A stretch of DNA of 64,000 bases. Source: an uncultured Roseovarius sp. GTDB taxonomy: Bacteria; Pseudomonadota; Alphaproteobacteria; Rhodobacterales; Rhodobacteraceae. A program made the position numbers and the translations under genes. Where the stretch lies: assembly GCA_947499555.1 (NCBI GenBank), contig CANMOU010000003.1:258979-322978 (forward strand). The letters run 5' to 3'. Each line of letters starts with the position of its first letter. Positions within the stretch are counted from its first letter, which is position 1. A model generated the notes under the pieces. That model was not told the origin of the DNA, searched no databases, and saw nothing but the letters and a program-made list of their open reading frames with translations. Below are positions 1,527-29,326 of the stretch, in pieces.

Positions 1527-1527
1527 T

Positions 1528-1884
1528 ATGGAGTTTCTTGTTGCATCCGCCATCGGGCTGCTGACAGCTGCTGGGATTTATCTGGTTCTGCGCCTGCGCA
1601 CCTTCCCTGTCATTCTGGGCATGTCGCTGCTGACCTATGCCGTAAACGTCTTTCTCTTTGCCTCAGGGCGCCTGACGATCGGCGCCCCGCCCATTCTGGT
1701 CAAAGGTGTCGAGACATACACCGATCCCTTGCCGCAGGCGCTGGTTCTGACGGCCATCGTGATCTCTTTTGGCATGACCGCGGTTGTTGTGATGATTGCA
1801 CTTGGCGCGTTCCTGAGTTCAGAGGACGACGCCGTCAACGACGCTGAAGAGACCGAAACACCGGCGCAGGAGGATGCATCATGA
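1528..1884 (+). CDS. mrpC: Na+/H+ antiporter subunit C (NuoK-like)
   Basis: ATG at 1528 sits immediately after the mrpA stop (TGA 1524-1526). The protein is about 118 aa, MEFLVASAIGLLTAAGIYLVLRL..., with 3 TM helices typical of MrpC/NuoK. Confidence 0.85.
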   Translation: MEFLVASAIGLLTAAGIYLVLRLRTFPVILGMSLLTYAVNVFLFASGRLTIGAPPILVKGVETYTDPLPQALVLTAIVISFGMTAVVVMIALGAFLSSEDDAVNDAEETETPAQEDAS

Positions 1885-3443
1885 TGCACTGGATCCTCAT
1901 GCCCATTATCCTGCCCGCTATCCTGGCTCCCTTCATCGTGCTTGCTGCACGCTACCATATCCAGATCCAACGCGTCTTCTCGATGGCTGGTGTTGTGGCC
2001 CTGATCGCGATTGCCGCTGGTCTGGCTTGGCAGGCCTCGGACGGCACGGTCACGCTTTATCAACTGGGCGACTGGGCGGCCCCCTTTGGCATCGTCGTCG
2101 TGGGCGACCGGTTATCGACCCTGATGGTCTTGCTAACCGCAATCCTGGCATTCTTCGTGCTCCTTTATTCCATCGCCTCGGGCTGGGACGAGCGCGGACG
2201 GCATTTCCACGCGCTCTTCCAGTTTCAGCTGATGGGGATCATGGGCGCGTTCCTGACCGGTGACCTGTTTAACCTCTTTGTGTTCTTCGAGGTTCTGCTG
2301 ATCGCCTCATATGGTTTGATGATTCATGCCGGTGGCCGTGAGCGGCTTCGGGCAGGGGTGCAATATGTGCTCTTTAATCTCTTGGGGTCCACGCTCTTTT
2401 TGTTCGCGCTGGGCGCGATCTATGCAGAGACCGGCACGCTCAACATGGCCGATCTGGCGCAGCGCGTGACCTTGATCGATGCCGACTCCACGGTTGGTAT
2501 TCGCGTGGCGGCGGTTCTCTTGCTTCTTGTCTTCGCCATCAAAGCAGCGCTTGTGCCGCTCCATTTCTGGCTGCCCTCAAGCTATGCCGAAGCCCCGGCG
2601 CCCGTGGCGGCGCTTTTTGCCATCATGACCAAGGTCGGGGCCTATGCTATCATTCGTGTCTATACCATCGTCTTCCCGCCTGACCTTGAGGTGACAGCCG
2701 GGTTGCACAATGATTGGCTCTTGCCTGCGGCGCTCGTGTCACTTGCGCTTGGCATGGGTGGCGTTTTGGCCGCCAAGAAACTGGACCGGCTCGTGACCTT
2801 CGCGGTAATCGGGTCCATGGGTATGGTGATGGTTGCGATCTCTCTCTTCACCGCGGAGAGCATTGCGGCGGCACTCTACTACATCGTTCATTCGACCCTT
2901 GCGGCAGCGGCGCTTTTCCTGATTGTCGATCTGGTCCGCACAAGCCGTCCTCATCTTGATCTGACACTGTTGCCTCCGGTTGCTGGTGCTGCGCTTATTT
3001 CCGGGCTCTTTTTTGTGGCGGCCATCGCCATGGCCGGGCTCCCACCGCTGTCGGGTTTCTTGGGCAAGCTGCTTATTTTGGACGCGTCTTTCGAGACGGC
3101 CAATCCGGTCTGGCCGTGGGCTGTGATCCTCACGGCAAGCCTGATCAGTATCGTCGGCTTCGCGCGCGCGGGAAGTACGGTGTTCTGGAAAGCAAAGAGT
3201 GTCGAGGAAACGCCCGCCGAAGAAGCCGAAGACAAGCTGGAAGACAGACCAGAACCTGCCACGCTGTCCTATGTTGCGGTCGGCGGTTTGCTGGCTTTGC
3301 TGATCAGCTACACCGTGTTTTCGGGTCCGGTGCATGCCTATATGAGCGCGACCTCAGAGCAGCTCTTCGCACCGGAATCCTATTTCTCGACGGTACTAGA
3401 AACACCAGGCAAGCTCAGCACACCAAAAGAGGAGGCGCACTGA
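1881..3443 (+). CDS. mrpD: Na+/H+ antiporter subunit D (NuoN/NuoL-family proton-pumping subunit)
   Basis: 520-aa polytopic protein with NuoL/N-type motifs (FFEVLLIASYGLM, conserved helix pattern). ATGA overlap with mrpC. Confidence 0.9.
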   Translation: MMHWILMPIILPAILAPFIVLAARYHIQIQRVFSMAGVVALIAIAAGLAWQASDGTVTLYQLGDWAAPFGIVVVGDRLSTLMVLLTAILAFFVLLYSIASGWDERGRHFHALFQFQLMGIMGAFLTGDLFNLFVFFEVLLIASYGLMIHAGGRERLRAGVQYVLFNLLGSTLFLFALGAIYAETGTLNMADLAQRVTLIDADSTVGIRVAAVLLLLVFAIKAALVPLHFWLPSSYAEAPAPVAALFAIMTKVGAYAIIRVYTIVFPPDLEVTAGLHNDWLLPAALVSLALGMGGVLAAKKLDRLVTFAVIGSMGMVMVAISLFTAESIAAALYYIVHSTLAAAALFLIVDLVRTSRPHLDLTLLPPVAGAALISGLFFVAAIAMAGLPPLSGFLGKLLILDASFETANPVWPWAVILTASLISIVGFARAGSTVFWKAKSVEETPAEEAEDKLEDRPEPATLSYVAVGGLLALLISYTVFSGPVHAYMSATSEQLFAPESYFSTVLETPGKLSTPKEEAH

Positions 3444-3444
3444 C

Positions 3445-3945
3445 ATGGCAAGGGCTCTTAACTGGCTTTTCCCGCATCCGGTGCTCACGCTTCTTCTAAC
3501 GGTGGTCTGGACGCTTCTGCAAAATAACATCTCGGCAGGGATGGTGGTGTTCGGTTTGATCCTTGGAACGATCATTCCGCGCATGACGGCTGTTTGGTGG
3601 CCGGACCGGCCTCGCGGCATCCGGGCTTTCAAATTTCTCAAATATATGCTCATCGTGCTTTGGGATATTCTTGTCGCAAATGTTCAAGTGGCTTGGATCG
3701 TTTTGACCCGGCCAAACTCGAAGCTGCGCCCGGCATGGGTTGTGGTGCCCCTTGATCTCAAGCAGCCCGAGGCAATCACCGTGTTGGCTGGTACCATTAC
3801 ATTGACGCCCGGCACCGTGTCGGCGGATATTTCCAGCGAAGGCCACAGCCTATTGGTGCATTCGCTTGACACGGATGATCCCGACGCCGTCCGCGATGAG
3901 ATCAAGTCTCGTTACGAGGCCCGTCTGAAGGAGATTTTCCTATGA
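3445..3945 (+). CDS. mrpE: Na+/H+ antiporter subunit E
   Basis: 166 aa; N-terminal TM pair followed by a soluble domain, as in MrpE. Position in the operon supports the call. Confidence 0.8.
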   Translation: MARALNWLFPHPVLTLLLTVVWTLLQNNISAGMVVFGLILGTIIPRMTAVWWPDRPRGIRAFKFLKYMLIVLWDILVANVQVAWIVLTRPNSKLRPAWVVVPLDLKQPEAITVLAGTITLTPGTVSADISSEGHSLLVHSLDTDDPDAVRDEIKSRYEARLKEIFL

Positions 3946-4229
3946 CTGCTGCTTTAGGGTTTCTGAATATCGCCCTTATTATTGCGTTCTGTGCGGTGGT
4001 GGTCTCGCAGCTGCTGTGCATCATCCGGCTATTCATCGGCCCCGATACCGGCGATCGAATCCTGGCGCTTGATACCATGGTGGTAAATGCCATCGGGATC
4101 ATCGTCCTTCTCGGCATCTGGCAAGGCACGCAAATCTATTTTGAAGTCTCCGTCATTATCGCCATGCTGGGGTTTGTCTCGACGGTGGCCTATGCGCGGT
4201 TCCGGCTAAGAGGAGACATCATCGAATGA
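3942..4229 (+). CDS. mrpF: Na+/H+ antiporter subunit F
   Basis: 95 aa, 3 TM helices, ATGA overlap with mrpE. MrpF-like size and order. Confidence 0.8.
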   Translation: MTAALGFLNIALIIAFCAVVVSQLLCIIRLFIGPDTGDRILALDTMVVNAIGIIVLLGIWQGTQIYFEVSVIIAMLGFVSTVAYARFRLRGDIIE

Positions 4230-4612
4230 CCTTCGACGCGATCCTGGTATACATCGCCGGTGTCTGGCTTTTGATCGGCGCAATCTTTGCGCTTGTGGGC
4301 GCAATCGGCCTGCTGCGGTTCACAGACTCGATGACGCGGTTGCATGCGCCCACCAAGGTTGGGACCGTGGGCATTGGCGCTTTGCTTCTTGCCGCCATCA
4401 TTCATGCCAGCGTCAGTGGAGATGGAACAATCCATGAGGTTCTGATCATGGCCTTCCTGTTTGTCACCGCACCGATTTCGGCCAACTTCATTGCCAAGGT
4501 GCATATCCATCGGCGGTCCTGTGAAACACCACCGGTGCCTTTGAAGGATCCAACCTGGTCGACACTGGCAACAACCGACGAGACGCCGGAACAGACCAAG
4601 GTCGAAGTTTAG
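4226..4612 (+). CDS. mrpG: Na+/H+ antiporter subunit G
   Basis: 128 aa, 3 TM helices plus a hydrophilic tail, ATGA overlap with mrpF. Last gene of the operon. Confidence 0.8.
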   Translation: MTFDAILVYIAGVWLLIGAIFALVGAIGLLRFTDSMTRLHAPTKVGTVGIGALLLAAIIHASVSGDGTIHEVLIMAFLFVTAPISANFIAKVHIHRRSCETPPVPLKDPTWSTLATTDETPEQTKVEV

Positions 4613-4642
4613 CCGAACGCAGACAACGGGCCGAAGACTGTC

Positions 4643-6970
4643 CTATGCGCGGGCTCTTTCCCTTTTGGGATCGTAGAACGGTGCATTGCGAACCGTTGCG
4701 CTGAGCCGCTTCATCCGCCCATCCATCTGCCCAACATCCAGCCTGGTCCCGTTCTCTGCGTGCTCCACGGCAAGCCGGGCCATTGCGATGGTTTTGTCCA
4801 TGATGGGAGAGCGCGTCGCGGACGTAATCACGCCAATCGCGCGTTCACCGGCAAAAACATGAGCGCCATGTGCCGGAACGTCGTCTCCGTCAAAGCTGAG
4901 GCCCTTAAGAACCTTGCGGGGATCGCGGGCATTACGCTCAAGCGCTGCACGGCCAACAAAATCGGTTTTCTTCAGATCAACAGCAAAGCCGAGGCCTGCT
5001 TCAAACGCGTCTATGCCGGGGGCAAATTCCGCGCCGGCAGCGGCAAGCCCGGCCTCGATGCGCAGGATTTCAAGCGCCGCGACGCCCATCGCCTCGATGC
5101 CGAATTCCTCTCCTGCCGCCATAACCGCATCCCACAGCGCAGGCGCATCGTCATGAGCGCAAAAAAGCTCGTAGCCCAATTCGCCCGTGTATCCGGACCG
5201 GGTGAGCATGAAAGGCACACCTTCACGGTCCCCAAGGCGCGCAACGGTCGCGCCGAACCATTTGACATGCTCAAGTGCCGGAACATGCGGCTGCGTGAAG
5301 ACAATCTTGCTCAATATGTCGCGGGACCTAGGCCCCTGCAATGCGAGGTTGGGCAGTGCACCACGCATGGCGTGCACTCGCACCTGCAGATCTTCTGATG
5401 TTGCCAGCTCCGAAAGCGCGCGACCGCTTTCTTCCGTACCGCAGCACCAGCGGAAAAGATTTGGTGCCATGCGAAAGAGCGTGCCGTCATCAATGACAGC
5501 CCCGGCCTCATCGCACATCAAGGCGTAGGTGCCGCGCCAAACTGCCAAACGCGAAACATCACGCGTGAGCGCCATTTGCAAAAGCCGTTCCGCGTCGGGC
5601 CCGACGATGTCGTATTTGCGCAGGCCGCTCATGTCTTGCAACGTGGCCTTTTCACGACAGGCCCAATACTCTCCGATTGTCCCAACACTGGGAAAGCTGA
5701 CCGGCGCCCAGAGATCGCGGGCAGGTGCGAAATGAGTTGTCAGCTTGGAGGTGCAGGGGTGAAACGCGCTTTCCTGACTGATCGACATCGGCGCATCTTC
5801 CTTTTCACGATAGGCCACGGCGCGACGGATCGGCGCTTCGGGTGAATAGATGCGCACATGCACATCTGTCGGGTTCCAGCCATTGATCGGATCAATGTCA
5901 TCGGGGCAGGCGGTTGAGACACAGACCAGATGGTCCATTGCCTTCAGCGCCACGTAATCTCCTGGCCGGGAATAACTTTCTTCGGTCATCAAACCGTGAT
6001 GCCTCGGATCAATCCACGTGTTCCAGAAGAAGTTGATTGCTGGCCAGGCAGACCTTCGGGCGACATCAAAAGGCGACAAGGCTTCTGATATGTTGTCAGA
6101 ACAATTCACATGCCCCGGGAATCCCCGCTCTTCATAGCCACGTGCGGTGCAGGCAAGACCAAATGTATCGTGCCGCCCGCAGGTGTCCTGCACGAGGTTC
6201 ATCATCGGGCGCATGTCACGGTCGAAGAATTTGTCGAACAGACCCGGCGTTGGATAAGCTCCGCGCACCATTGACCGCGTGGCGGTACCGTTGATCATCA
6301 ACTCTTCACCACGCTCGAGGCCGCTGCTCCGCAATGCCATGAAATCGGAGCATTGCTGACCTTCGACATCAATGATCTGAACGACCTCGCCGGGCTTCAC
6401 TTCATAGGCACGTGCTGTTCCGCGAGACACGGTAAACTCGTCCCGGACCTCGCCCATAGGTGGGGGCAGCAGCATATTGGAGGTGAGGCTGGCAGGCTTA
6501 TGAGTAAGCAGAATGGTTTCCGGCGCAGCGTCTTCCACAAGGCGATCAGGCGTCACCGCGTTGATGGCCCAGAGATGACAGTCCGCGCTTGTACTTAAGG
6601 CGACGAGGTCATCGGCGGGGACCTCGACAATATCGATCGTCGAGCCAATCGCCTTACCATTCGACGCGCACCATCCAGTCAGGGCGGTGCTGTCAAATGC
6701 GCTCAGGGAAAGACTTGCGTTGCCCTCAAGGCCAAGAAGGTGGGGTGCCGGATGTCCCAGATGATCCAGCACGAAAGCCGCAACCTTCTGCGTACTGCGC
6801 GTAGGTGCGACGGAAAGCAAGTCGCCGGCGGAGAGATCAAAGCGCACCGCTTCACGCGGGCCGATGGATTTTGTCAGGGATGCCGTCTTGTCAGGAAAGC
6901 CTGCAAAGATCCGGCCTTGGCCTGAATAGCCGATATTGCTGAAGTCGTGTTGGACAGACTTATGTTCCAC
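4643..6970 (-). CDS. DUF1989 (urea-carboxylase-associated family) domain fused to aminomethyltransferase (GcvT/T-protein, folate-binding) domain; 775 aa
   Basis: The C-terminal ~370 aa carry GcvT-family motifs (TRSGYTGELGYELF, folate-binding barrel). The N-terminal ~400 aa resemble DUF1989 proteins (VKPGEVVQIIDVEGQQCSDF...). It is divergent from a LacI regulator and upstream of a peptide-type ABC transporter. Confidence 0.75.
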   Translation of the reverse strand: MEHKSVQHDFSNIGYSGQGRIFAGFPDKTASLTKSIGPREAVRFDLSAGDLLSVAPTRSTQKVAAFVLDHLGHPAPHLLGLEGNASLSLSAFDSTALTGWCASNGKAIGSTIDIVEVPADDLVALSTSADCHLWAINAVTPDRLVEDAAPETILLTHKPASLTSNMLLPPPMGEVRDEFTVSRGTARAYEVKPGEVVQIIDVEGQQCSDFMALRSSGLERGEELMINGTATRSMVRGAYPTPGLFDKFFDRDMRPMMNLVQDTCGRHDTFGLACTARGYEERGFPGHVNCSDNISEALSPFDVARRSAWPAINFFWNTWIDPRHHGLMTEESYSRPGDYVALKAMDHLVCVSTACPDDIDPINGWNPTDVHVRIYSPEAPIRRAVAYREKEDAPMSISQESAFHPCTSKLTTHFAPARDLWAPVSFPSVGTIGEYWACREKATLQDMSGLRKYDIVGPDAERLLQMALTRDVSRLAVWRGTYALMCDEAGAVIDDGTLFRMAPNLFRWCCGTEESGRALSELATSEDLQVRVHAMRGALPNLALQGPRSRDILSKIVFTQPHVPALEHVKWFGATVARLGDREGVPFMLTRSGYTGELGYELFCAHDDAPALWDAVMAAGEEFGIEAMGVAALEILRIEAGLAAAGAEFAPGIDAFEAGLGFAVDLKKTDFVGRAALERNARDPRKVLKGLSFDGDDVPAHGAHVFAGERAIGVITSATRSPIMDKTIAMARLAVEHAENGTRLDVGQMDGRMKRLSATVRNAPFYDPKRERARA

Positions 6971-6996
6971 TGCCCCTGCTCCTGTTCGACTCAGGT

Positions 6997-7012
6997 ATGT
7001 AACCGGTTACAT
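6997..7012. promoter_or_regulatory. Perfect 16-bp palindrome ATGTAACCGGTTACAT, a LacI-family-type operator
   Basis: The sequence reads identically on both strands with a central CG. It lies in the 110-bp divergent intergenic region between the GcvT-fusion gene and the LacI-family regulator. Confidence 0.6.
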
Positions 7013-7047
7013 TTTGTGTGCAAATTGCGTCATTGTCAAGAAAATGG

Positions 7048-7061
7048 TGTAACCGGTTACA
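7048..7061. promoter_or_regulatory. Second copy of the operator palindrome TGTAACCGGTTACA
   Basis: Identical 14-bp palindrome about 50 bp from the first copy, 20 bp upstream of the regulator start codon. Confidence 0.6.
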
Positions 7062-7080
7062 TCAATCAGCTAGTCTAAAA

Positions 7081-8088: not shown

Positions 8089-9054
8089 TCACTCGGCCAG
8101 ATGGCAGGCCACGCGTGTCTCTCCGATCATGCGCATCTCCGGGCGTTCCTTGCTGCAGCGGTCCACGGCCAAGGGGCAGCGCGGGTGAAATGCACAGCCG
8201 TTGGGCGGATTGATGGCATCGGGGATCTCGCCCTTGGGCGGGTCAACTTCACGGCCAAAGGCATCCATGCGGGGCGCCGCATCGAAAAGCATCTGCGTAT
8301 ACGGATGGCGCGGCTTGGCAAAAAGCGCGTCGCGTGGCGCTTCTTCGACCAGCCGACCCAGATAAAGCACGCCGATCCGGTCGGCCATGTGCTGCACAAC
8401 GGTTAGATCATGGCTGATGAAAAGATATGTGAGGCCAAGATCCTCGCGCAGGTCGGACATCAGGTTCAGCACCTGACTTTGTACTGACACATCCAAAGCC
8501 GATGTTGGCTCGTCACAGACGATGATCTTGGGGCCAGAGGCCAGCGCACGGGCGATACATATCCTTTGCCTTTGGCCGCCTGAAAACTCATGCGGATATT
8601 TCGACGCGTCTGCTGCCGACAGCCCCACCTGTTCCAAGAGCCGCTCGGCCAGACCGTTGGTGTCTCCACCCTTGGCCGCGACTGGTTCTGCGATAATGTC
8701 GCGCACGCGCCAACGAGGGTTGAGCGAAGCGTAGGGGTCTTGAAAGATCATCTGAATATCCGAGCGGACGGTCTCGATCTTACGGTCATCGCGTTCAGTG
8801 GCCAAATCTATACCGCTGATCTCGACAGCCCCATTCGATGGCGGAACAAGCCCCACGACGATCTTGCCAATGGTGGACTTGCCAGATCCACTCTCACCGA
8901 CAAGAGCATAGACGGTCTTTTCCTCAATCTCGAAACTGACATCTGAAACGGCAGTAAGAAGTGCTTTGGGCAGACGTTCAATGACCCGATTCAGCCATGG
9001 CTTTGAGACGTCAAAGACACGTGTCAGATTGCGAACTGAAATCAAGGCGCTCAT
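8089..9054 (-). CDS. Peptide/nickel ABC transporter ATP-binding protein (DppF/OppF-like)
   Basis: Walker A GESGSGKST, signature LSGGQRQR, and the C-terminal oligopeptide ABC extension. Start taken at MSALISVRNL. Confidence 0.85.
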   Translation of the reverse strand: MSALISVRNLTRVFDVSKPWLNRVIERLPKALLTAVSDVSFEIEEKTVYALVGESGSGKSTIGKIVVGLVPPSNGAVEISGIDLATERDDRKIETVRSDIQMIFQDPYASLNPRWRVRDIIAEPVAAKGGDTNGLAERLLEQVGLSAADASKYPHEFSGGQRQRICIARALASGPKIIVCDEPTSALDVSVQSQVLNLMSDLREDLGLTYLFISHDLTVVQHMADRIGVLYLGRLVEEAPRDALFAKPRHPYTQMLFDAAPRMDAFGREVDPPKGEIPDAINPPNGCAFHPRCPLAVDRCSKERPEMRMIGETRVACHLAE

Positions 9055-10040
9055 GCGACCGTGTCCTCTTTGATATTCAGCGGGAACCAGCATGCCGCGC
9101 GACCGTCGCAGGTATCAAGTCTCGGGGACGGATCCTGACGGCATCTGTCCTTCGCAAACTCGCAGCGCGGATTGAAGGCACAGCCTGTGGGCAAAGCACC
9201 CAGACGTGGCATGGCCCCGGGAATCTGACGCAGACGTTTCTGGCCCTGGCTTGCCAGAGGGGTCGAGGCCATAAGACCCGAAGTATAGGGATGCTTCGCT
9301 TCCGTGATCACATCGCGCACCGGCCCAAGCTCGGCCAGACGCCCGGCATACATAACGGCCACGCGGTCGGCGGCCTCGGCAATCACGCCCATGTCGTGGG
9401 TGACCAGCATCACGGCGACGCCGCGCTCGCGGCAGAGGCGTTTGAGCAGGGCCACGATCTGCGCCTGCACGGAGACATCCAAAGCGGTGGTGGGTTCATC
9501 GGCGATGACAAGCTCCGGTTCGGCGCAAAGCGCAAGCGCAATCACCACCCGTTGCCGCATCCCGCCAGAAAACTCGTGCGGATAGCTGTCAATCCGCTGG
9601 GCGGCAGCGGGTATGCCCACCTCTTCCAAAGCCGCGATGGCCCGTTTCTGCGCTTCGGATTGCCCGACATTCAGGTGTTCCTGGATCGTCTCGGTCAGCT
9701 GCTCGCCCACTGTCAGAAGCGGGTTGAGTGACGTCAGCGGATCCTGAAAAACCATCCCCATATGTCGCCCGCGCAACCGCCGCAACTTGTCACGCGAGAT
9801 ATCGTGGATGGGCTCGCCCTTGAGCAAGACCTCACCCGAGGTGATGTGCGCGGGCGGGTCAAGCAGGCCGATCACGGCATTCCCGGTCATGGATTTCCCC
9901 GCCCCGGATTCGCCCACCACACCAAGGATTTCGCCAGCATGAATGTCATAGCTCACCTGATCCACAGGTCGCAGAATGCCGTGCCGCGTGGGGATTTCCA
10001 CGACAAGGTCGCGGACGGAAAGGATGGGGGTGTTGGTCAT
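9051..10040 (-). CDS. Peptide ABC transporter ATP-binding protein (DppD/OppD-like)
   Basis: Walker A GESGAGKSM, signature FSGGMRQR. Start at MTNTPILSV, with ATGA overlap to the upstream permease. Confidence 0.85.
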   Translation of the reverse strand: MTNTPILSVRDLVVEIPTRHGILRPVDQVSYDIHAGEILGVVGESGAGKSMTGNAVIGLLDPPAHITSGEVLLKGEPIHDISRDKLRRLRGRHMGMVFQDPLTSLNPLLTVGEQLTETIQEHLNVGQSEAQKRAIAALEEVGIPAAAQRIDSYPHEFSGGMRQRVVIALALCAEPELVIADEPTTALDVSVQAQIVALLKRLCRERGVAVMLVTHDMGVIAEAADRVAVMYAGRLAELGPVRDVITEAKHPYTSGLMASTPLASQGQKRLRQIPGAMPRLGALPTGCAFNPRCEFAKDRCRQDPSPRLDTCDGRAACWFPLNIKEDTVA

Positions 10041-10996
10041 CTCAACCTCGGGTTCAATGCATCTCTGAGCCAATCGCCCAAGAGGTTGATCGACAGCGCC
10101 AGCGCCAGCAATGTCGCCGCCGGGAACAGCAGGATCCACCATTCCCCAGAGAACATGAATTCCTGCCCAATGCGGATGAGCGTTCCTAGCGAGGGTTTGG
10201 TGGGTGGCGCGCCGACGCCGAGGAAGCTGAGCGTCGCTTCGGCTATGATCGCCAAAGCCAAGGAGATCGTGGCAATCACCAGCACGGGGTTCAGCACATT
10301 GGGCAGGATATGCCGCAGCATGATGGAAAAGCGCGAGCGCCCGATGAGCTTGGCGGCCTGAACATATTCCTTGTTCTTCTCAACCAGTGTTGTGCCCCGA
10401 ACAACCCGCGCAAACTGCACCCAGTCCGAAAGCCCGATGGCGAGGATCAGCACCCAGATCGCCATTTGATCGCGGTATTCCGCAGGCGTGACCCCCTTCG
10501 CAATCCCGAAGATAAGCATCGCTACAAGGATCGAAGGGAAGGTCAGCTGAATATCGGCGATACGCATGATGATGGTTTCGGTCCACCCGCCCAGATACCC
10601 GGCAATCAGACCAAGCGTGACACCGATAAGCATCGCCAGAAGCACTGCCGAGAAGCCGACAAAAAGCGAAATGCGCATCCCGTAAAGGATGGTAGAGAAC
10701 ACATCGCGCCCTTGGTCGTCAGTTCCCAGAAAGAACGTATCGCCTGTGAAGGCATTGGCTTCGCCCGGCGGCGTGAATCCGTTCAAAAGGTTCAGAGTGG
10801 CCGGGTTGAACGGGTCGAAGGGCGCGATCAGCGGCGCGAAGACCGCCGCGAGGACAAGGAAAACAACAATAATAGCCGACACAATCGCCACAGGAGCATG
10901 GCGGAAGGACCACATGAAATCGCTGTCCCACATCCGCTTCATGCGGGACGGGGCAGTTGTGCTGATTTGGGTTTCTGAAAGCGGTGCGTCGGTCAT
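10037..10996 (-). CDS. Peptide ABC transporter permease (DppC/OppC-like)
   Basis: 6-TM binding-protein-dependent permease with the EAA-like loop. Start at MTDAPLSET. Confidence 0.85.
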   Translation of the reverse strand: MTDAPLSETQISTTAPSRMKRMWDSDFMWSFRHAPVAIVSAIIVVFLVLAAVFAPLIAPFDPFNPATLNLLNGFTPPGEANAFTGDTFFLGTDDQGRDVFSTILYGMRISLFVGFSAVLLAMLIGVTLGLIAGYLGGWTETIIMRIADIQLTFPSILVAMLIFGIAKGVTPAEYRDQMAIWVLILAIGLSDWVQFARVVRGTTLVEKNKEYVQAAKLIGRSRFSIMLRHILPNVLNPVLVIATISLALAIIAEATLSFLGVGAPPTKPSLGTLIRIGQEFMFSGEWWILLFPAATLLALALSINLLGDWLRDALNPRLR

Positions 10997-11991
10997 CAGT
11001 GGCCTCCCGCAGTGCGGTCCACGCGCAAGCGTGGATCGATCGCAAAATAAAGCATATCGACGATCAGGTTGATGCCCACGAACATCACCGAAATCATCAT
11101 GAGGTAAGCGGCCATCACGGGGATATCCACGAACTGCACGGCGTTGATGAACAAAAGCCCCACACCCGGCCACTGAAACACCGTTTCAGTGATGATGGCG
11201 AAGGCAATAATGCTGCCCAGTTGCAGGCCCGTGATCGTGATCACGGGCACCAATGTGTTCTTCAGCGCATGGCGGAAGTTGATGGCCCGGTCCTTGATCC
11301 CGCGCGCACGAGCAAAGCGGATATAGTCCATCCGAAGCACTTCCAGCATTTCGGTGCGCACCAGCCGCATAATCAGCGTCATTTGGTAAAGCCCGAGCGT
11401 GATCGCGGGCAGCACCAGAGCCTGCAGGCCACTCTGCGTAAGGAAGCCGGTGGACCAGCCGCCGATCTGAACTGTCTGGCCTCTCCCGAAACTTGGCAGC
11501 CAGCCAAGCTCAACCGAGAAGACGTAAATCAACAGAATCCCAATCAGGAATGTCGGCAATGACACTCCGATAAGCGAGGTAGTCATGATGATATTGGCCG
11601 CCACTCCACGTTTTCGGATAGCCGTGAAAATCCCCAGAGCAATGCCGCCGAGAAGCGCCAAAAGGCCGGAAACAAAGGCCAGTTCCAGCGTGGCTGGCAG
11701 CCGCTCTAACAGGATGTCTGATACTGGCCTTCCTTGCCGGAAACTTAGCCCGAAATTGCCTTGGACCGCGTTTTCCAGAAACCTGTAATATTGCACGAGA
11801 AATGACTGATCCAGACCGAGGTTCTCGCGCAGCCGCTCGACATCTTCGAGCGTCCTTTCCTGGCCCAGCATGTTTTCGATGGGATCACCGACAAATCGGA
11901 ACATGGCAAAGGCAACGAGTCCGACCACGAGAAGCACGAGCGCGGATTGCGCCACACGCCGGATGATATAGGCAAGCATGATCGTCCCCAA
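10996..11991 (-). CDS. Peptide ABC transporter permease (DppB/OppB-like)
   Basis: 331-aa permease with the typical N-terminal helix and conserved loop. The start may be the internal Met at 11979. Confidence 0.85.
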   Translation of the reverse strand: MGTIMLAYIIRRVAQSALVLLVVGLVAFAMFRFVGDPIENMLGQERTLEDVERLRENLGLDQSFLVQYYRFLENAVQGNFGLSFRQGRPVSDILLERLPATLELAFVSGLLALLGGIALGIFTAIRKRGVAANIIMTTSLIGVSLPTFLIGILLIYVFSVELGWLPSFGRGQTVQIGGWSTGFLTQSGLQALVLPAITLGLYQMTLIMRLVRTEMLEVLRMDYIRFARARGIKDRAINFRHALKNTLVPVITITGLQLGSIIAFAIITETVFQWPGVGLLFINAVQFVDIPVMAAYLMMISVMFVGINLIVDMLYFAIDPRLRVDRTAGGH

Positions 11992-12068
11992 TCAAATCTG
12001 CACGGTGTCTTTTGGTTCTTGAGCGTGCAAGAGGGTAGGGCGGCCCCGAAAGGCCGCCCCAAATGGTT

Positions 12069-13646
12069 TTAGTTCATTTTGAAGAACTTGAATTTCGGGT
12101 CGTCTTCCGGGCTCACTTCGGTGCCGACTTTTTCGGTCATGCCCCAGTTGAGCACCTGGTGGTGGATCGGGATGTAAAGCGTTTCTTCCTGTACGACGCT
12201 CCAGATGTCGCCGATGGTCGCGTTGCGCGCGTCGAGATCGGTCTCAGAGGCAAGGCTCTGGATCTTGGTATCAAGATCCGGGTTGGAATAGCCTGTGCCG
12301 TTCCAGCTGCCGCGCTCTTCGCCACGGGTGTGGACAAGGAAATTGAAGATGTATTCCGAGTCGTAGGTTGGAACACCCCAGCCCAGCATGTAGAAATCCG
12401 TCTCTTTGTTCTGGATAAGCGGGAAGTGCTGTGCCTTTGGTTGCGCGTTGAGGTTCACGGTCACACCGATCTGCGCCATCATCCCCACAGCAGCCTGACA
12501 GATGCCTTCATCATTGACATACCGGTCATTCGGACAATCAAGCTGAATGCTGAACCCGTCGCCATACCCGGCATCGGCCATCAAGGCCTTGGCTTTCTCG
12601 ATATCTGTCATGGCGCTGGCGTCCATGTCCGCTGACCAGCCATTGACAAATGGCGGTGCAATCATGCCAGCGGGCTGTGACTGTTCGCGCATGACGACCT
12701 TCTTGATCGCATCACGGTTAACCGCCAAGGACATAGCTTTGCGCACGCGAGCATCCGAAAGTGGGTTTTTGCCTTCAACATTGTCATTTGCGATGTCTTC
12801 GGCGCCCATATTCATGCCAAAGAAGATCACCCGGTTCTGCGGCGCGGTTTTGACGACAAGCCCGTCCGTACTGGCGACACGTTCAAGGTCCTGCACCGGA
12901 ACGTCCTGGATGAAATCAACCTCGCCGGAAAGCAAGGCTGCCACACGTGTCGCCGCGTTCTGGATGGGCGTATAAACGACCTCGGTGACATCGAGCTGGA
13001 ACTCATCTTTGCCCCAATAACTTTCATTGGCTGTCAGAACGGTTTTCACGTCCGGCTCACGGCTTGTCATCACAAAGGGGCCGGTACCGTTGGTATTGGC
13101 TGAGGCAAATGTCGTCTCACCGCCTGCGATATCCTGAACCTTGGTTGCACCGTTGGCCTCGGTCCACGTCTTGTCCATCATGAAGAGGTTGGTGAGGTTC
13201 GCCGGCAAAATAGGGTTCGGACCATTTGTAACGAATTCAACGGTATGATCATCCACCGCGCGGACTTCGGTGATCGAGGTCAAGAGCTCTTTCATCGCCG
13301 AATTCTCAGACTGCGCGCGGTTGATCGAGAAGACGACGTCCTCAGCCGTGAAATCCGATCCATCATGATATGTCACGCCCTGACGCAGGTTGAACACCCA
13401 TACATTCGGATCGCCCTCTTTCGGAGCCCAGTCTGTGGCCAGAGCAGCCTGGAATGCACCGGAATGATCGCGAATGATCAATGGTTCGTAAATTTGGTGC
13501 GCCAATGTGTGAGTTGGTCCCTCGTTCTGCGCATGCGGATCAAGCGTCAGCGAGTCGCCTGCACGCGCCCATCGCAGGGTCTCTGCCGATGCGCCCGCAG
13601 CGACAGTTGACATAAGCAACGCTGCAAGAATGGTTTTGGTTTTCAT
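12069..13646 (-). CDS. ABC transporter substrate-binding protein, family 5 (DppA/OppA-like), secreted
   Basis: Signal peptide MKTKTILAALLMSTVAAGASA; 525 aa with solute-binding family-5 features. First gene of the transporter operon. Confidence 0.9.
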   Translation of the reverse strand: MKTKTILAALLMSTVAAGASAETLRWARAGDSLTLDPHAQNEGPTHTLAHQIYEPLIIRDHSGAFQAALATDWAPKEGDPNVWVFNLRQGVTYHDGSDFTAEDVVFSINRAQSENSAMKELLTSITEVRAVDDHTVEFVTNGPNPILPANLTNLFMMDKTWTEANGATKVQDIAGGETTFASANTNGTGPFVMTSREPDVKTVLTANESYWGKDEFQLDVTEVVYTPIQNAATRVAALLSGEVDFIQDVPVQDLERVASTDGLVVKTAPQNRVIFFGMNMGAEDIANDNVEGKNPLSDARVRKAMSLAVNRDAIKKVVMREQSQPAGMIAPPFVNGWSADMDASAMTDIEKAKALMADAGYGDGFSIQLDCPNDRYVNDEGICQAAVGMMAQIGVTVNLNAQPKAQHFPLIQNKETDFYMLGWGVPTYDSEYIFNFLVHTRGEERGSWNGTGYSNPDLDTKIQSLASETDLDARNATIGDIWSVVQEETLYIPIHHQVLNWGMTEKVGTEVSPEDDPKFKFFKMN

Positions 13647-13783: not shown

Positions 13784-14506
13784 TCAGGAACCGCGCAGGA
13801 ACTCGTCGACGAGAAGATTGAAAAGGGTTGGCCGCTCAAGATGCACAGCGTGCGCACAGTCGGGTAACACCGCAAGCCCAGCATCGGGGATGGTCTTCCA
13901 AAGCCGTTCGATCTGGGGCCACGCATAGGTTCGGTCCTGATCTCCCCAGATCACGAGCGTGTCCGATGCAATGTTGGAAAGATGCGCTTCGCCAGACCAT
14001 TCCCGCATCGCCTCAAGGCCCGCCAGAATCGCAGGCAAGCTGCTTTTTGCGGCAATATCCGCGCAATCCGGATAGGCCTCAGCCGTTTCCTGCTCCAAGA
14101 ACCAAGTGGCGGAAATCCGTCGTGCCGTGGCTTCGGCACCGTCCTGTCGCGCACGCTCCATCGAGGTTTCAATCGGCTCGAACCGACCGGGCAGGATGCC
14201 AACAGGGCCAGTGCCGTAAAGGATCAGTTTGCGAATACGGTCAGGGGCCTGACGGGCCATGTCCTGAACAATCATCCCACCCATTGAGTGGCCAAGAAGA
14301 TCGAAACGCTCAACGCCTTCTTCTTTGGTTTTCGCAAGCACCCAGGCGGCAAAATCTTCAATCCGATCGATAGGGTCAAGATGCGCCAGTTTGCCAAAAC
14401 CCGGCAGGTCAATTGCGATGATCTGCCGTTCCTTCGCAAGCGCCGATTGTGCCGGCCATTGATCGCTGCCGCCCATGAAGCCATGGACGAGAACGAGGGG
14501 TGTCAC
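13784..14506 (-). CDS. Alpha/beta-fold hydrolase
   Basis: Nucleophile elbow GHSMGG and the oxyanion motif HGFMGG. A GTG start at 14506 overlaps the proW stop (GTGA). Last gene of the operon. Confidence 0.75.
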   Translation of the reverse strand: MTPLVLVHGFMGGSDQWPAQSALAKERQIIAIDLPGFGKLAHLDPIDRIEDFAAWVLAKTKEEGVERFDLLGHSMGGMIVQDMARQAPDRIRKLILYGTGPVGILPGRFEPIETSMERARQDGAEATARRISATWFLEQETAEAYPDCADIAAKSSLPAILAGLEAMREWSGEAHLSNIASDTLVIWGDQDRTYAWPQIERLWKTIPDAGLAVLPDCAHAVHLERPTLFNLLVDEFLRGS

Positions 14507-16053
14507 TTGCGTTGTCCTTGTACGATCCGGTCGAGGATCATTGCGCAGAAGAGGATCGAGAAGCCTGCCAGAATACCCTGTCCGACATTGGCATATTGCA
14601 GCGCTTCCAGAACGTCTTCGCCAAGGCCTTTGGCCCCGATCAGTGAGGCCACAACAACCATCGCCAGCGAGAGCATAATCGTCTGGTTGATCCCGGCACG
14701 GATCGAGGGGCTTGCCAGTGGCAAGTCGACCTTGGTCAGAAGATACCATTTATTGGCGCCAAAGCTGATCGCTGCTTCACGCACGCTTTCCGGCACGCCG
14801 CGCAGACCAAGCACAGTCAGGCGCACAACGGGTGTGCCCCCAAAGATCATGGTGACCACAACGGCCGCTGGTTTGCCGACGCCGAAGAAGGCGATGACCG
14901 GAACCATGAACACGAAGGCCGGCATGGTCTGCATAAAGTCCATGATCGGCTGGATGAAGGCATAAAAGCGTGGACGCCGCGCAGCGAACATGCCCAGCGG
15001 AATGCCGATGACAATGGACAAACACGCCGCTGTCCCCAGAAGCGCCAGCGTTGTCATCGCCGCCTCCCAGAAGCCCAGCAGACCCATATAGGCCAGGAAG
15101 GCGCCGGAATAGATCGCCGTGCGCAGTCCAGCCGTCAGCCATGTCAGAAGGATGATCAAGCTGGCGATCACGATCCACGGAGTCTGCACCAGGATCACCT
15201 CCAACGCATCGAGCAACGCGCGAATGCCAAAGGTGAGGGCGTCAAAGAAGGCTTCGCTGTTGCGCACACAGAAGGCGATGAAATCTTCAACCCAGGTGAT
15301 GCCGGTCAGCCGAATATTGGGGTCTGTTGGAAAGGCCGTCAGTAGCGAGAACTTTCCCGGAAAACTGTAGTGCACCATCGCTGTTGCGACGATCAAAATC
15401 ATGAAAATAGCACTGAATACAATTTCCGTTACAGGCAATCCAGAACGGATCGTGCGATCAGACAGCCAGTCGGAGAAACGCGCTTCCAGCGCCCAGTTGG
15501 CCATAAAGGCCTGAACCAATTTGACAACAATCAATATCGCCAAGCCGGTCAGTGCAATCGAAAAGCCCTGAGCGGACATTGCTTCAGCCTCAGCGCGAAA
15601 GCTTGCTATGTTGGCTTCGATTGAATCGACAGCCCTTTGCAGGCCTTCAACACGGTCAGACCCTTCTTCCAAAGCGGCCTCCAGCTGTTTCTTGCGCAGC
15701 TCCAGCGTGCCTTCGATCGAACTGATACGCGCTAAGGCTTCTGCGCCAAGTTCACCAAATAGGCCTCTTGCGATCTGCACAAACCCAAGCGCTTCGAGAA
15801 TGAGAAAAGGAAGCGCCCAGTTCCAAAGGCCCCGCGCCCCAAACCAAATAGGGCCGAAAAGCCCGGCCATGGCGTTGAAGGTCGGAGTAAACTTGGCCGA
15901 AGCACCAATCTTGTCGAACATCCGGATGTAGTAGTCGGGGCTGGTGCGCACGAAGGTGCGAATGTTTTCGCGCCGCTCTTCGGCATAGGCCAGTGCCGCT
16001 TCGCTTTCCGTGTCCTCAAGCGGGTTGACGCCAAGATCGGTCGTGTCGGTCAT
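14503..16053 (-). CDS. proW: Glycine betaine/proline-type ABC transporter permease (ProW/OpuAB-like) with ~250-aa N-terminal extension
   Basis: The C-terminal half is a typical ProW permease. The N-terminal ~250 aa hold extra TM helices and a coiled-coil-like stretch (LELRKKQLEAALEEGSDRVEGLQRAVDSIEANIASFRAEAEAM). Confidence 0.85.
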   Translation of the reverse strand: MTDTTDLGVNPLEDTESEAALAYAEERRENIRTFVRTSPDYYIRMFDKIGASAKFTPTFNAMAGLFGPIWFGARGLWNWALPFLILEALGFVQIARGLFGELGAEALARISSIEGTLELRKKQLEAALEEGSDRVEGLQRAVDSIEANIASFRAEAEAMSAQGFSIALTGLAILIVVKLVQAFMANWALEARFSDWLSDRTIRSGLPVTEIVFSAIFMILIVATAMVHYSFPGKFSLLTAFPTDPNIRLTGITWVEDFIAFCVRNSEAFFDALTFGIRALLDALEVILVQTPWIVIASLIILLTWLTAGLRTAIYSGAFLAYMGLLGFWEAAMTTLALLGTAACLSIVIGIPLGMFAARRPRFYAFIQPIMDFMQTMPAFVFMVPVIAFFGVGKPAAVVVTMIFGGTPVVRLTVLGLRGVPESVREAAISFGANKWYLLTKVDLPLASPSIRAGINQTIMLSLAMVVVASLIGAKGLGEDVLEALQYANVGQGILAGFSILFCAMILDRIVQGQRK

Positions 16054-17105
16054 GATACTTCTGTCCCTTCGATCACGGTGCGCAGCAGATCGGCGCGGGT
16101 GATGACGCCCACGTCTTTGCCGTCTGCCTGCACGATGATGGCGTTGTCGTCGTCAATCGCGAGATTGATCAGATTGCTCAGCGTTTCCGCCTCATCCACA
16201 CGCGGGCCGTCGGCACCAAGTGGCCCTTTGTTAGAGACATGCGCTTCAATCGGCTGCATCACCGCATGTGCATGAACCACTTTGAGGCGGGAAATACCGG
16301 CCACAAAATCGGCCACATAATCGTCGGCCGGGTTCATGACGATATCCTCCGCCGTGCCAATCTGCACCATCTTGCCGTCACGCATAATGGCGATGCGGTC
16401 TCCGATTCTAACCGCTTCATCCAGATCGTGCGTGATGAAGATCGTGGTCTTCTTCAAAATCTTGCTGAGCCGGATGAACTCGTCCTGCAGTTGCCTCCGG
16501 ATAAGCGGGTCCAGTGCTGAAAACGGCTCGTCCATGAGCAGAACATCCGGGTTGGCGGCAAGCGCCCGTGCCAGACCGACGCGTTGTTGCATCCCGCCTG
16601 AAAGCTCATGGGCAAACTTCGACCCCCATGCGCCCAGCTCAACGATGTCGAGGATCGCCGCGGCCTGGCGCATGCGTTCATTCTTGGCGACTTGGCGGAT
16701 TTCCAGCGGCATCGCGACATTGTCGAGAACCGAGCGGTGCGGCATCAGCGCAAAGTTCTGAAAGACCATGCCGATCTTCTGGTTGCGAAAGAGCTGCAAC
16801 TCTTTTGGCCCCAAAGCCATGACATCGGTGCCTTCAATTTCGATCTTTCCAGCCGTGGGTTCCAAAAGACGGTTGAAATGGCGCACCAGTGTGGATTTAC
16901 CACTTCCCGACAGGCCCATTATGCAGAAGATTTCGCCGCGCTTCACATCAAGGCTGACATCGGCCACACCAACCACCGCGTTGAACTCTGACAGCACTTC
17001 AGCCTTGGTCAGGCCCCGGGATCGGATCGCTTCCAACGCCTCTTTGTGCTTGTTACCGAAAATCTTCCAGACGTTGGAAATTTCAATGACGACTTCTTGG
17101 GTCAT
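16050..17105 (-). CDS. proV: Glycine betaine/proline ABC transporter ATP-binding protein with C-terminal tandem CBS domains
   Basis: Walker A GLSGSGKST, signature LSGGMQQRVGLARAL. The C-terminal ~120 aa form a CBS pair. Confidence 0.9.
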   Translation of the reverse strand: MTQEVVIEISNVWKIFGNKHKEALEAIRSRGLTKAEVLSEFNAVVGVADVSLDVKRGEIFCIMGLSGSGKSTLVRHFNRLLEPTAGKIEIEGTDVMALGPKELQLFRNQKIGMVFQNFALMPHRSVLDNVAMPLEIRQVAKNERMRQAAAILDIVELGAWGSKFAHELSGGMQQRVGLARALAANPDVLLMDEPFSALDPLIRRQLQDEFIRLSKILKKTTIFITHDLDEAVRIGDRIAIMRDGKMVQIGTAEDIVMNPADDYVADFVAGISRLKVVHAHAVMQPIEAHVSNKGPLGADGPRVDEAETLSNLINLAIDDDNAIIVQADGKDVGVITRADLLRTVIEGTEVS

Positions 17106-17180
17106 GTGGGTATTGTCCCGCCAGCGCTCAGGTGGGTCAGCAACGGACGGAACCGGTGCTGACTTTTTTTGATGTTGGGC

Positions 17181-18146
17181 TTAGAGGCCCAGCCAACCGT
17201 CCACGCGGTCAGAGTTCTCGTCGATCCACTTCTTGGCAGCATCCGCCGGATCCGTGCCGTTTGCGCTGATGTCGAATGCAAGAGCACTCACATCGTCAGC
17301 GGTCAGCTGGAAGTTCGAGAAGAACTCGGCAATCGCAGGTGAGCGATCAGCCAAAGAGTTCGACCACGCGATTTGCACGTTCTTCAAAGCGTCTTTCGTG
17401 GCGACGTTTGACTTTTCGTACCAGTCGGCATCGTCTGAAGGCTGAACCATCACGTATTTTGCAGGATCAAATGTGGGCTCGGTCAGCATCTGCACGTCAA
17501 ACTGGAACCAGACGGCATGTGGTTTGTAGCAGTAGAACGCATAGCCTTCTCCTTTGGCGATGCTGTCTTTGATGCGCGCTGTTTTCACACTTTCTTCGGC
17601 TCGAACAGGCTCAATGAAGTCGAGCAGACCATAGTCGCGGGTTTTGACTTCATTGACGTTGGCCGAGGCCCAGCCAGGCGCACCGATCCACATCTCACCC
17701 TTGCCGTTGCCGTCGCTGTCCATAAGCGCCGCCACGTCAGGACGACCCAGATCCGCGATATCGGTGATGTTGTTGGCTTCGCCGAAATCTTTGGTCACGC
17801 AGAAACCCTGGTTTCCCTCATAAGGGTTTGACGAAAGCGTCACAGTGCCTGCTTCATCGACGTATTTCTTGGTGAAGCTTTCCTGGTTGGGCAGCCAAAC
17901 GTCAGGATGGACGTCGATATCGCCTTTACCCTGATCCATCGCCTGGAAAATCGTGGCGTTGTTGCCCGGCACGTATTCCACCTTGCCACCGATGCGGGAT
18001 GTGACCACCTCGCCCAGCACATGCGCAATGGCTTGCGCTCCGGTCCAGGATGGAACGCCGATTTTCACCTCTTCCGCGGCAAAGGCCGGCAGCGCCAGCA
18101 CACTTACCACAGCCGCAAGGCCGATGGTTTTCAATTTCGATGTCAT
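17181..18146 (-). CDS. proX: Glycine betaine-type substrate-binding protein (ProX family), secreted
   Basis: Signal peptide MTSKLKTIGLAAVVSVLALPAFA. ProX/OpuAC-like fold, with aromatic residues typical of quaternary-amine cages. Confidence 0.85.
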   Translation of the reverse strand: MTSKLKTIGLAAVVSVLALPAFAAEEVKIGVPSWTGAQAIAHVLGEVVTSRIGGKVEYVPGNNATIFQAMDQGKGDIDVHPDVWLPNQESFTKKYVDEAGTVTLSSNPYEGNQGFCVTKDFGEANNITDIADLGRPDVAALMDSDGNGKGEMWIGAPGWASANVNEVKTRDYGLLDFIEPVRAEESVKTARIKDSIAKGEGYAFYCYKPHAVWFQFDVQMLTEPTFDPAKYVMVQPSDDADWYEKSNVATKDALKNVQIAWSNSLADRSPAIAEFFSNFQLTADDVSALAFDISANGTDPADAAKKWIDENSDRVDGWLGL

Positions 18147-18192
18147 TTCTTTCTCCTCTGTTATTGGATGCGCCGATTCTTACGGCGTCTGG

Positions 18193-19236: not shown

Positions 19237-19317
19237 CTTCCATTCCTTATTTGGATTACCCCGCGATAGCTTGACCGAGTATGTCCAAATGTTCCAATGT
19301 TATGTTTGAATGACATT

Positions 19318-19332
19318 ATGCAAAACTTGCAT
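19318..19332. promoter_or_regulatory. Candidate LysR box ATGCAAAACTTGCAT (T-N11-A inverted repeat)
   Basis: Imperfect palindrome with T-N11-A architecture in the 110-bp divergent region between the lysR-type gene and the PLP-enzyme operon. Confidence 0.4.
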
Positions 19333-19346
19333 GATCGGGTGTTGGC

Positions 19347-21425: not shown

Positions 21426-21459
21426 AAGTGCTGGCCTAATGCTCCATCTTGGTTCAAAC

Positions 21460-29200: not shown

Positions 29201-29326
29201 TGTTTCAGCTTGCGGACCTCGTGGCCATTTGCCAAGCCTTATCTGCGAAATGCCGCACGCCTTTTGACTGGAAAATCCCCAAACCCTCCCATATTCAGTG
29301 GCGGGTGAGATAAAGGGACATGCGCG

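Follow-up and report, generated by a model that had tools for sequence, protein, structure and literature searches.

Here we describe an enzyme gene, its divergently transcribed regulator gene and their surroundings in a 64,000-nucleotide stretch of DNA from an uncultured Roseovarius sp. (GenBank contig CANMOU010000003.1; the whole stretch is hereafter called the window). The enzyme gene, here called the tdm-like gene after the trimethylamine N-oxide (TMAO) demethylase Tdm (TDM), occupies the minus strand as an open reading frame (ORF) of 775 amino acids (aa), with a GTG start codon and an AGGAG motif 8 nt upstream of it; the predicted N-terminus, MEHKSVQH, is common to relatives. The product carries the Pfam domains DUF1989 (aa 180–346, 1.4e-40), GCV_T (aa 409–663, 3.7e-58) and GCV_T_C (aa 688–767, 4.9e-17), which bears out the 775-aa DUF1989-GcvT fusion reported in an earlier reading made without database searches (the sequence-only reading). 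Ahead of these lies a beta-rich domain that has no Pfam match and is folded in the structural model described below, with a predicted local distance difference test (pLDDT) score of about 75–90. The span 4643–7080 had been assigned to the feature as a whole; it is coding up to position 6970, and the rest, up to 7080, is a 110-bp intergenic region and not coding. The gene stands alone, with only a convergent Mrp Na+/H+ antiporter operon on its 3' side, and across the intergenic region a gene for a LacI-family regulator faces the other way. Judged by its sequence, the enzyme is a member of an uncharacterised paralogous clade of the Tdm family.

The fusion is not an orphan but the published architecture of TMAO demethylase, a Zn- and folate-dependent enzyme also known as TMAO aldolase, which demethylates an osmolyte that is common in the sea. 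In the PDB, the window protein matched the TMAO demethylase 9q59 of Paracoccus (E = 1.9e-182, aa 44–774), with chains 9q5l and 9q5a annotated likewise, and the two proteins are 41.6% identical over 748 aa; among NCBIfam models, the TMAO demethylase model NF053776 was the best match by far. In the Paracoccus enzyme, a Cys3-Zn site in the DUF1989 core (C285, C301 and C365) binds the TMAO oxygen (PMC13619132), and D220, F327 and D367 surround the substrate (PMC13619132; eLife 2026 cryo-EM). An F327A mutant loses most of its activity, and an enclosed tunnel leads the formaldehyde to the GcvT domain, whose tetrahydrofolate (THF) site comprises R480, F582, F672 and K782 and in which methylene-THF is formed (PMC13619132). 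The variable N-terminal domain is required for solubility and assembly (PMC13619132) and represents a degenerate DUF1989-like fold that is variable but always present (Cappa 2025, PMC12560246). Where the sequence-only reading had found neither the substrate nor the role of DUF1989 evident, this architecture thus offers a template for both, with DUF1989 as the Zn catalytic core of a TMAO demethylase (PMC13619132). The association with urea carboxylase genes suggested in that reading was not borne out: the protein scores 83.9 bits on TIGR03424 against a cut-off of 284.7 and 49.3 bits on TIGR03425 against 206, and no urea or guanidine carboxylase was found among the window neighbours scanned with Pfam.

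Residues were mapped through the alignment with 9q59 and an alignment of 232 sequences, using the numbering of Paracoccus TDM. The Cys3-Zn site is complete (C274, C290 and C355 in the window protein for C285, C301 and C365), and its cysteine columns are invariant in an alignment of 40 sequences; the active-site residues D220 and D367 correspond to D209 and D357, and H298 is conserved as H287. In the THF site, R480, F582 and F672 are retained as R470, F572 and F662, and K782 is replaced by R770, a conservative change. The folate-binding residues of the GcvT domain, which the earlier reading had singled out for checking, are therefore present, and its prediction that a C1 unit is removed and transferred to THF is well supported at the level of these conserved positions. 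Two further positions depart from the Paracoccus enzyme, namely the substrate-contacting F327, which is W316 in the window protein, and R216, which is Q205 and stands four residues before the catalytic Asp. An AlphaFold2 (AF2) model built from the 40-sequence alignment (mean pLDDT 81, predicted template-modelling score 0.70) was compared by Foldseek with a structural library that predates 9Q59 and matches only the GcvT and DUF1989 parts: the GcvT part aligned with the T-proteins 1yx2 and 1wos with a template-modelling (TM) score of 0.92, normalised by target, and the core aligned with the DUF1989 protein 3oru with a TM score of 0.74.

Several lines of evidence set this enzyme and its relatives apart from canonical Tdm. 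On NF053776, whose equivalog cut-off is 1100 bits, the window protein scores 1046.2 bits (about 5% below) and four other members of its clade score 1055–1093 bits, so that all tested members fall short. Paracoccus TDM passes with 1150.6 bits even when deprived of its first 44 residues, and so do a gammaproteobacterial homologue (1209 bits), an actinobacterial homologue (1119 bits) and protein P0248 (1214 bits), the first two of which are much more distant than the clade. In a neighbour-joining tree of the core and GcvT region, the window protein and all relatives of 60–82% identity form one monophyletic clade, separate from the clade that holds Paracoccus, Roseobacter and SAR11-like sequences. 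The clade is also marked by the two departures noted above, as Q216 and W327 (Paracoccus numbering) occur in all sampled members and in no sampled homologue outside. At position 327, all clade members (100%) have Trp, 99% of the sampled canonical (Rhodobacterales) sequences have Phe, and the more distant homologues that pass the cut-off have Tyr; the sister clades P0243, P0244, P0245, P0247 and L063 share other differences with the clade but keep Phe327. Six further candidate markers (S219, A223, G289, R293, T363 and I372) were discarded, being common to sister clades that keep F327. The 763-aa protein P0244 (954 bits) was likewise rejected as the Methylocella enzyme, since the published residue numbers do not fit it. 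In a related locus of a Ca. Poriferihabitaceae metagenome-assembled genome (L063), two Tdm-family genes (4076–6097 and 9476–11821) lie about 4 kb apart, and their products have 44% and 56% identity to that of the window gene; downstream of the second come an OpuAC-type ATP-binding cassette (ABC) system and an alpha/beta hydrolase.

That the clade is paralogous to canonical Tdm is indicated by Tropicimonas sediminicola DSM 29339, in whose genome a clade member (P0034, with 68% identity to the window protein) exists alongside a canonical enzyme (P0174, 71% identical to Paracoccus TDM); their mutual identity is 41.5%. P0174 lies in an mgs-gmaS-tmoR-tmm-tdm-amtB-dmmDABC island. The canonical copies of both Tropicimonas and Aliishimia sit between tmm and amtB-dmmDABC, to which the Tropicimonas island adds mgsABC-gmaS-purU-GntR. 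This is the methylated-amine island of the Ruegeria pomeroyi type, the regulators of which are TmaR and the GntR-type TmoR (PMC13390433). Judging from this island context and regulation, R. pomeroyi SPO1562 would belong to the canonical clade. Among the conserved neighbours of the window's own clade, by comparison, tmm, dmmDABC, gmaS and mgs/mgd were not found.

The regulator facing the tdm-like gene belongs to the LacI family (PF00356 LacI helix-turn-helix domain, 2.9e-18, with PF00532 and PF13377, the Peripla_BP_1 and Peripla_BP_3 domains), and its PDB matches are GntR, CcpA and PurR. It aligns end to end with the dimeric PurR and CcpA and is without the C-terminal extension of E. coli LacI, and because of this one dimer per operator would be expected; its best NCBIfam score, 209 bits, lies below the cut-off of 400. 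Within the 110-bp intergenic region, two identical and perfect copies of TGTAACCGGTTACA, O1 and O2, lie 50 bp apart from start to start, as the sequence-only reading had noted together with the divergent lacI gene, and O1 extends to a perfect 16-bp palindrome (6997–7012). Between them, a consensus scan predicts a sigma-70-like promoter for the tdm-like gene, with the -35 element TTGACA (7039–7034), a 17-nt spacer and the -10 element CAAAAT (7016–7011), amounting to 10 of 12 consensus matches. Even with two mismatches allowed, TGTAACCGGTTACA has only these two sites in the whole window, and a search with the degenerate motif TGWAACNNGTTWCA and one mismatch again returned O1 and O2 alone; dinucleotide-preserving shuffles gave an expectation of 0.02 TGTAACCGGTTACA sites, and at least two sites occurred in none of 100 shuffles.

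The same pairing of regulator and palindrome recurs among relatives. With the window protein as query, 80 genome loci were fetched and 1.54 Mb of sequence was scanned for operators. A divergent lacI orthologue (43–57% identity) was present in 53 of the 80 loci; 52 of these 53 have the operator, in one to three sites each, and 28 of 29 loci without divergent lacI have none, the exception being L005, in which one operator site is present and lacI lies at the distal end of the ABC operon. Exact TGWAACNNGTTWCA occurred 89 times in the 1.54 Mb, with all but one of the matches (88/89) within 250 bp upstream of the enzyme gene, so that in the fetched loci the palindrome is far from the random, unlinked scatter that the sequence-only reading had named as grounds for doubt. 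The proximal operator mostly ends 20–25 bp before the start codon in relatives (27 bp in the window), and a second operator exists in 34 of the 53 loci, paired sites being 21–24 bp apart in 23 loci and 42–51 bp apart in 10 (50 bp in the window). O1 and O2 are thus predicted LacI operators, as the earlier reading had supposed.

The partners of the enzyme were surveyed by all-against-all clustering of 1276 ORFs from 83 loci. Most loci with divergent lacI continue with an OpuAC-type substrate-binding protein (SBP), a ProV-like ATPase and a ProW-like permease, and these three, with lacI, are the only widely conserved neighbours of the clade. In the window, the corresponding importer is found 7.5 kb from the tdm-like gene, inside a LysR/cuyA operon and without a LacI operator. 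Its genes are 86–87% identical to those that immediately follow the tdm-like gene of Roseovarius albus (L037) and 82–89% identical to their counterparts in L052 and L053, and the importer may be functionally tied to the window enzyme. Three subtypes of the OpuAC SBP can be told apart, A and C being about 50% identical to each other and B about 35% identical to the window's type.

Other genes accompany the importer in the window or the enzyme gene elsewhere. The surrounding block (13784–20264) has a LysR gene (19347–20264, plus strand) divergent from a cuyA-type operon that encodes, besides the importer, a CuyA-type D-cysteate sulfo-lyase (18193–19236; NF052482, 497 bits against a cut-off of 450) and an alpha/beta hydrolase (13784–14749, start uncertain); the pairing of a sulfo-lyase with a betaine-type importer suggests a sulfonated onium or amine substrate. 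This LysR/cuyA/OpuAC block adjoins the tdm-like gene in L052 and L053. Dehydrogenases of about 815 aa resembling dimethylglycine dehydrogenase (DMGDH), with DAO, FAO_M and GcvT domains, lie less than 10 kb from the tdm-like module in L017, L018 (two copies), L019, L026, L045, L049, L050 and L055; PurU is nearby in L018, L019, L050 and L057, FolD in L018 and L050, and GMC oxidoreductases in three loci. On plasmid p599725 of Paracoccus seriniphilus (L085, 83–8539), the genes upstream of lacI encode a GMC oxidoreductase, an enolase-superfamily protein, an aldehyde dehydrogenase, a TauD/TfdA dioxygenase, a class II aldolase and an NAD(P) oxidoreductase, a set reminiscent of the chemistry of trimethyl-lysine, butyrobetaine and carnitine; in this locus, the annotation splits the tdm-like gene into two overlapping pieces, perhaps because of a frameshift. 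Such minority neighbours are only suggestive of a wider methylated-amine or betaine context.

Taken together, we consider it probable that the tdm-like gene encodes a LacI-repressed, Zn- and THF-dependent demethylase of TMAO or of a TMAO-like amine oxide. On the model of its homologue Paracoccus TDM, a small tertiary-amine N-oxide would be bound through its oxygen at the Cys3-Zn site of the DUF1989 core and cleaved, in a redox-neutral reaction assisted by Asp209 and Asp357, to a secondary amine and formaldehyde; the C-terminal GcvT domain would receive the formaldehyde and trap it on THF as 5,10-methylene-THF. The LacI-type repressor, probably as one dimer per site, would sit on O1, by the -10 element of the enzyme promoter, and on O2, by the -35 element and before lacI, and would shut off both genes until an inducer, possibly the imported amine oxide or its product, appears. 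The substrate would enter through the OpuAC-type importer; across the clade the same repressor-operator pair may drive both enzyme gene and importer, and in the window the operators are found only at the enzyme gene and lacI. As to the substrate, TMAO itself is a serious candidate, to which we would give somewhat less than an even chance, and a TMAO-like amine oxide or onium compound comes close to an even one. In a more specific and more tentative version, the Q216/W327 clade would have a specificity of its own, its substrate being some tertiary-amine N-oxide that is not TMAO, or else a different onium osmolyte, with the LacI protein sensing a methylated amine or amine oxide.

Several points weigh against this proposal. 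The substitutions at F327 and R216 fall at or next to substrate contacts of the characterised enzyme, and three loops of the active site (236–244, 318–332 and 358–366) are poorly predicted in the AF2 model, so that no inference on the shape of the pocket is drawn from it. Repression, rather than activation, is read from the position of the operators only. The genes tmm, dmmABC, gmaS and mgs, which would process the dimethylamine, do not occur in the window. A phmmer search of the PDB gave no match to the TMAO-binding protein TmoX (4XZ6) for the window SBP or for the type-A SBP, and the type-B SBP matched it at E = 1.4e-5 with 27.8 bits only; the neighbouring SBPs were therefore rejected as TmoX orthologues. 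The two kinds of enzyme were seen together in the genome of one strain (Tropicimonas) and otherwise at the level of the genus (Paracoccus, Shimia), and the literature searched contained no biochemical data on members of the clade.

The best surviving alternative is that the window enzyme is the ordinary TMAO demethylase of its organism, with the same function as the Tdm of Methylocella, Ruegeria pomeroyi and Paracoccus, the differences of the clade being neutral drift and the OpuAC systems alternative TMAO importers. We regard this as unlikely. F327 is the only catalytic or metal residue that is not conserved, and its replacement by W, another aromatic residue, is a mild one, yet both clade-defining substitutions are invariant and lie at or beside substrate-contacting positions; a score just about 5% under the NCBIfam cut-off looks slight, but the clade fails where far more distant homologues pass, is separate from the characterised enzyme and coexists with a canonical tdm in one genome. 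The importer, too, can be read in both ways: TmoX belongs to the OpuAC family of SBPs and a module of importer and enzyme is what the scavenging of external TMAO would lead one to expect, whereas the transporter of the clade is not TmoX. Finally, the published regulators of tdm are TmaR and TmoR, not LacI (PMC13390433).

According to a second alternative, the substrate is a quaternary ammonium or sulfonium osmolyte such as betaine, from which a methyl group is transferred directly to THF in the manner of DmdA, and DUF1989 serves mainly as a binding or scaffold module. The GcvT family does include DmdA, a true methyltransferase (PDB match 3tfh), and the partners of the clade are OpuAC importers of the betaine, choline or proline-betaine type; however, the complete Zn site and the two catalytic aspartates never vary, a sign that the DUF1989 core is still catalytic. 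No core of the Tdm type is known to act on a compound that is not an oxide. The C1 and oxidative enzymes found near the module (DMGDH-like proteins in eight loci, PurU in four, FolD in two and GMC oxidoreductases in three) fit such a route, as does the Paracoccus seriniphilus plasmid module beside a TauD-family dioxygenase, a class II aldolase and an aldehyde dehydrogenase, but neighbours of the DMGDH-like, PurU, FolD and GMC kinds are confined to a minority of loci and are common in Rhodobacterales. On balance this alternative is improbable.

The remaining alternative concerns the five-gene Dpp/Opp-type ABC operon that is adjacent to the tdm-like gene on the same strand. The minus-strand order, beyond the plus-strand LysR gene, is the cuyA-like gene, the OpuAC SBP, ATPase and permease, the alpha/beta hydrolase, the Dpp-type genes, lacI on the plus strand, the enzyme gene (6970–4643) and the convergent Mrp operon; the ABC genes described in the sequence-only reading as downstream of an enzyme that leads their operon are thus upstream of it, with the opposite-strand lacI in between. 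That the enzyme sits in or at the head of this operon and demethylates an imported small peptide-like or N-methylated compound, as that reading proposed, is highly improbable, since the operon, although it directly adjoins the enzyme gene in L001 and L002, the closest relatives, is next to it only in these two and the window among 83 loci (one of the other 78 has an SBP5 match, 24% identical only), has no LacI operator upstream of its SBP gene in the window, is under its own GntR/UTRA regulator in L001 and L002, and encodes an SBP only weakly similar to any characterised binder. What remains of the link is synteny with the two closest relatives, and the partner of the clade is instead the OpuAC importer. 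In L001 and L002 (Roseovarius phycicola group, 81–82% identical), lacI and both operators are absent or lost, and the tdm-like gene follows directly (about 8900–10000) on the Dpp-type operon headed by the GntR/UTRA regulator; in L001, the second ABC ATPase was not called and there is a 1-kb gap in its place. In the window, the lacI stop directly abuts the stop of the last Dpp-type ATPase gene in a convergent arrangement, without spacer or terminator.

The coordinates of these features are collected in Table 1. Most flanking genes of the window, whose GC content is 56.7%, encode proteins 90–97% identical to those of contigs of the R. phycicola group. The Mrp/Pha-type Na+/H+ antiporter operon convergent with the tdm-like gene (1–4612; MnhB/MbhD/E fusion, D, E, F and G) has a synteny common to L001 and L002. 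Farther along the window, two adjacent ORFs of 321 and 162 aa (20460–21927) have no Pfam or NCBIfam match, and a 520-aa protein (28637–30199) carries YARHG and DUF4453 domains.

Table 1. Coordinates of the enzyme gene, its predicted control region and the transporters discussed in the text.
Feature	Position	Strand	Remarks
tdm-like gene	4643..6970	-	Tdm-family enzyme by sequence, three domains; paralogous Q205/W316 clade
N-terminal beta-rich domain, about aa 31–170	6461..6880	-	Degenerate DUF1989-like module without Zn cysteines
DUF1989 catalytic core, aa 180–346	5933..6433	-	Predicted from Pfam and residue mapping onto Paracoccus TDM
GcvT folate-binding domain and C-terminal barrel, aa 409–767	4670..5746	-	Pfam, alignment, Foldseek
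Predicted operator O1, TGTAACCGGTTACA	6998..7011		27 bp upstream of the tdm-like start codon; abuts the predicted -10
Predicted sigma-70-like promoter of the tdm-like gene	7011..7039	-	Consensus scan
Predicted operator O2, TGTAACCGGTTACA	7048..7061		19 bp before the lacI ATG; just upstream of the predicted -35
LacI-family regulator, 335 aa	7081..8088	+	Divergent from the tdm-like gene; Pfam
Five-gene Dpp/Opp-type ABC system	8089..13646	-	SBP, two permeases, two ATPases; Pfam
OpuAC-type importer	14503..18146	-	SBP 17181–18146, ATPase 16050–17105, permease 14503–16053; Pfam, NCBIfam

The question of whether this clade has a role of its own reaches beyond the window. In ocean metagenomes, Tdm genes are counted as markers of TMAO turnover and dimethylamine release, and such counts mix two functions if a large set of 'Tdm' homologues in the Roseobacter group forms a paralogous clade that differs in substrate or role. 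If the clade does have a specificity of its own, its regulator would be without known precedent among LacI-family repressors in sensing a methylated amine or amine oxide, and the two would represent a self-contained module for sensing, import and demethylation that is widespread in marine Rhodobacterales, Roseibium and SAR116-like bacteria, adding an unrecognised branch to marine methylated-amine cycling; if the enzyme merely adds another TMAO demethylase, what is left is a known enzyme under a new regulator. The clade offers ready experimental handles: its LacI-type repressor comes with a sharply defined operator, TGWAACYRGTTWCA, so that inducer screening could reveal the substrate, and the invariant pair F327W and R216Q allows a direct test of substrate selectivity in the newly solved Tdm active site. 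New here are the branch, its signature substitutions, the LacI-type regulator with a defined operator and the non-TmoX transporters, while the fusion itself is already known; the literature searched contained no paper on any of these four, whether on a Tdm paralogue or on a LacI regulator of tdm.

Among known systems, the closest are the characterised Tdm enzymes of Methylocella silvestris (Msil_3603), Ruegeria pomeroyi (SPO1562) and Paracoccus sp. DMF (9Q59/9Q5L/9Q5A), with which the window enzyme shares the degenerate DUF1989-like N-terminal domain, the DUF1989 Zn core and the GcvT THF domain. Unlike them, it falls below the equivalog cut-off, belongs to a separate clade, has W for F327 and Q for R216, is encoded outside a tmm/dmm/gmaS island and faces a LacI-type regulator instead of TmaR or TmoR. 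The transporters of the clade resemble TmoXWV (TmoX, 4XZ6) in combining an OpuAC-family SBP with a ProV-like ATPase and a ProW-like permease, but their SBPs are not TmoX orthologues, and the window importer is not beside the enzyme gene.

The regulator can be compared with the dimeric repressors PurR, CcpA and GntR (Pseudomonas), with which it has in common the LacI helix-turn-helix, the fold of type-I periplasmic-binding proteins, a palindromic operator of 14–16 bp with a central CG, a divergent regulator gene and operators that overlap promoters; it is an orthologue of no named regulator, however, and its predicted target is not a sugar or nucleoside pathway but an enzyme that acts on amine oxides or methylamines. 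Stand-alone DUF1989 proteins (the carboxyguanidine deiminase CgdAB and 'urea-carboxylase-associated proteins'; 3ORU, 3DI4) share the core fold and the cysteine Zn site, whereas the window protein is fused to GcvT and scores far below the TIGR03424 and TIGR03425 cut-offs. Lastly, the C-terminal 370 aa have the GcvT fold (Foldseek TM scores of 0.83–0.92 against T-proteins, normalised by target) and the THF pocket, as in DmmD, DmdA, dimethylglycine oxidase/dehydrogenase and the alpha subunit of sarcosine oxidase. These GcvT-domain enzymes capture a C1 unit on THF, as we propose for the window enzyme; in contrast to the flavin enzymes among them, it has a Zn DUF1989 core as the N-terminal partner of GcvT and lacks any predicted redox cofactor.

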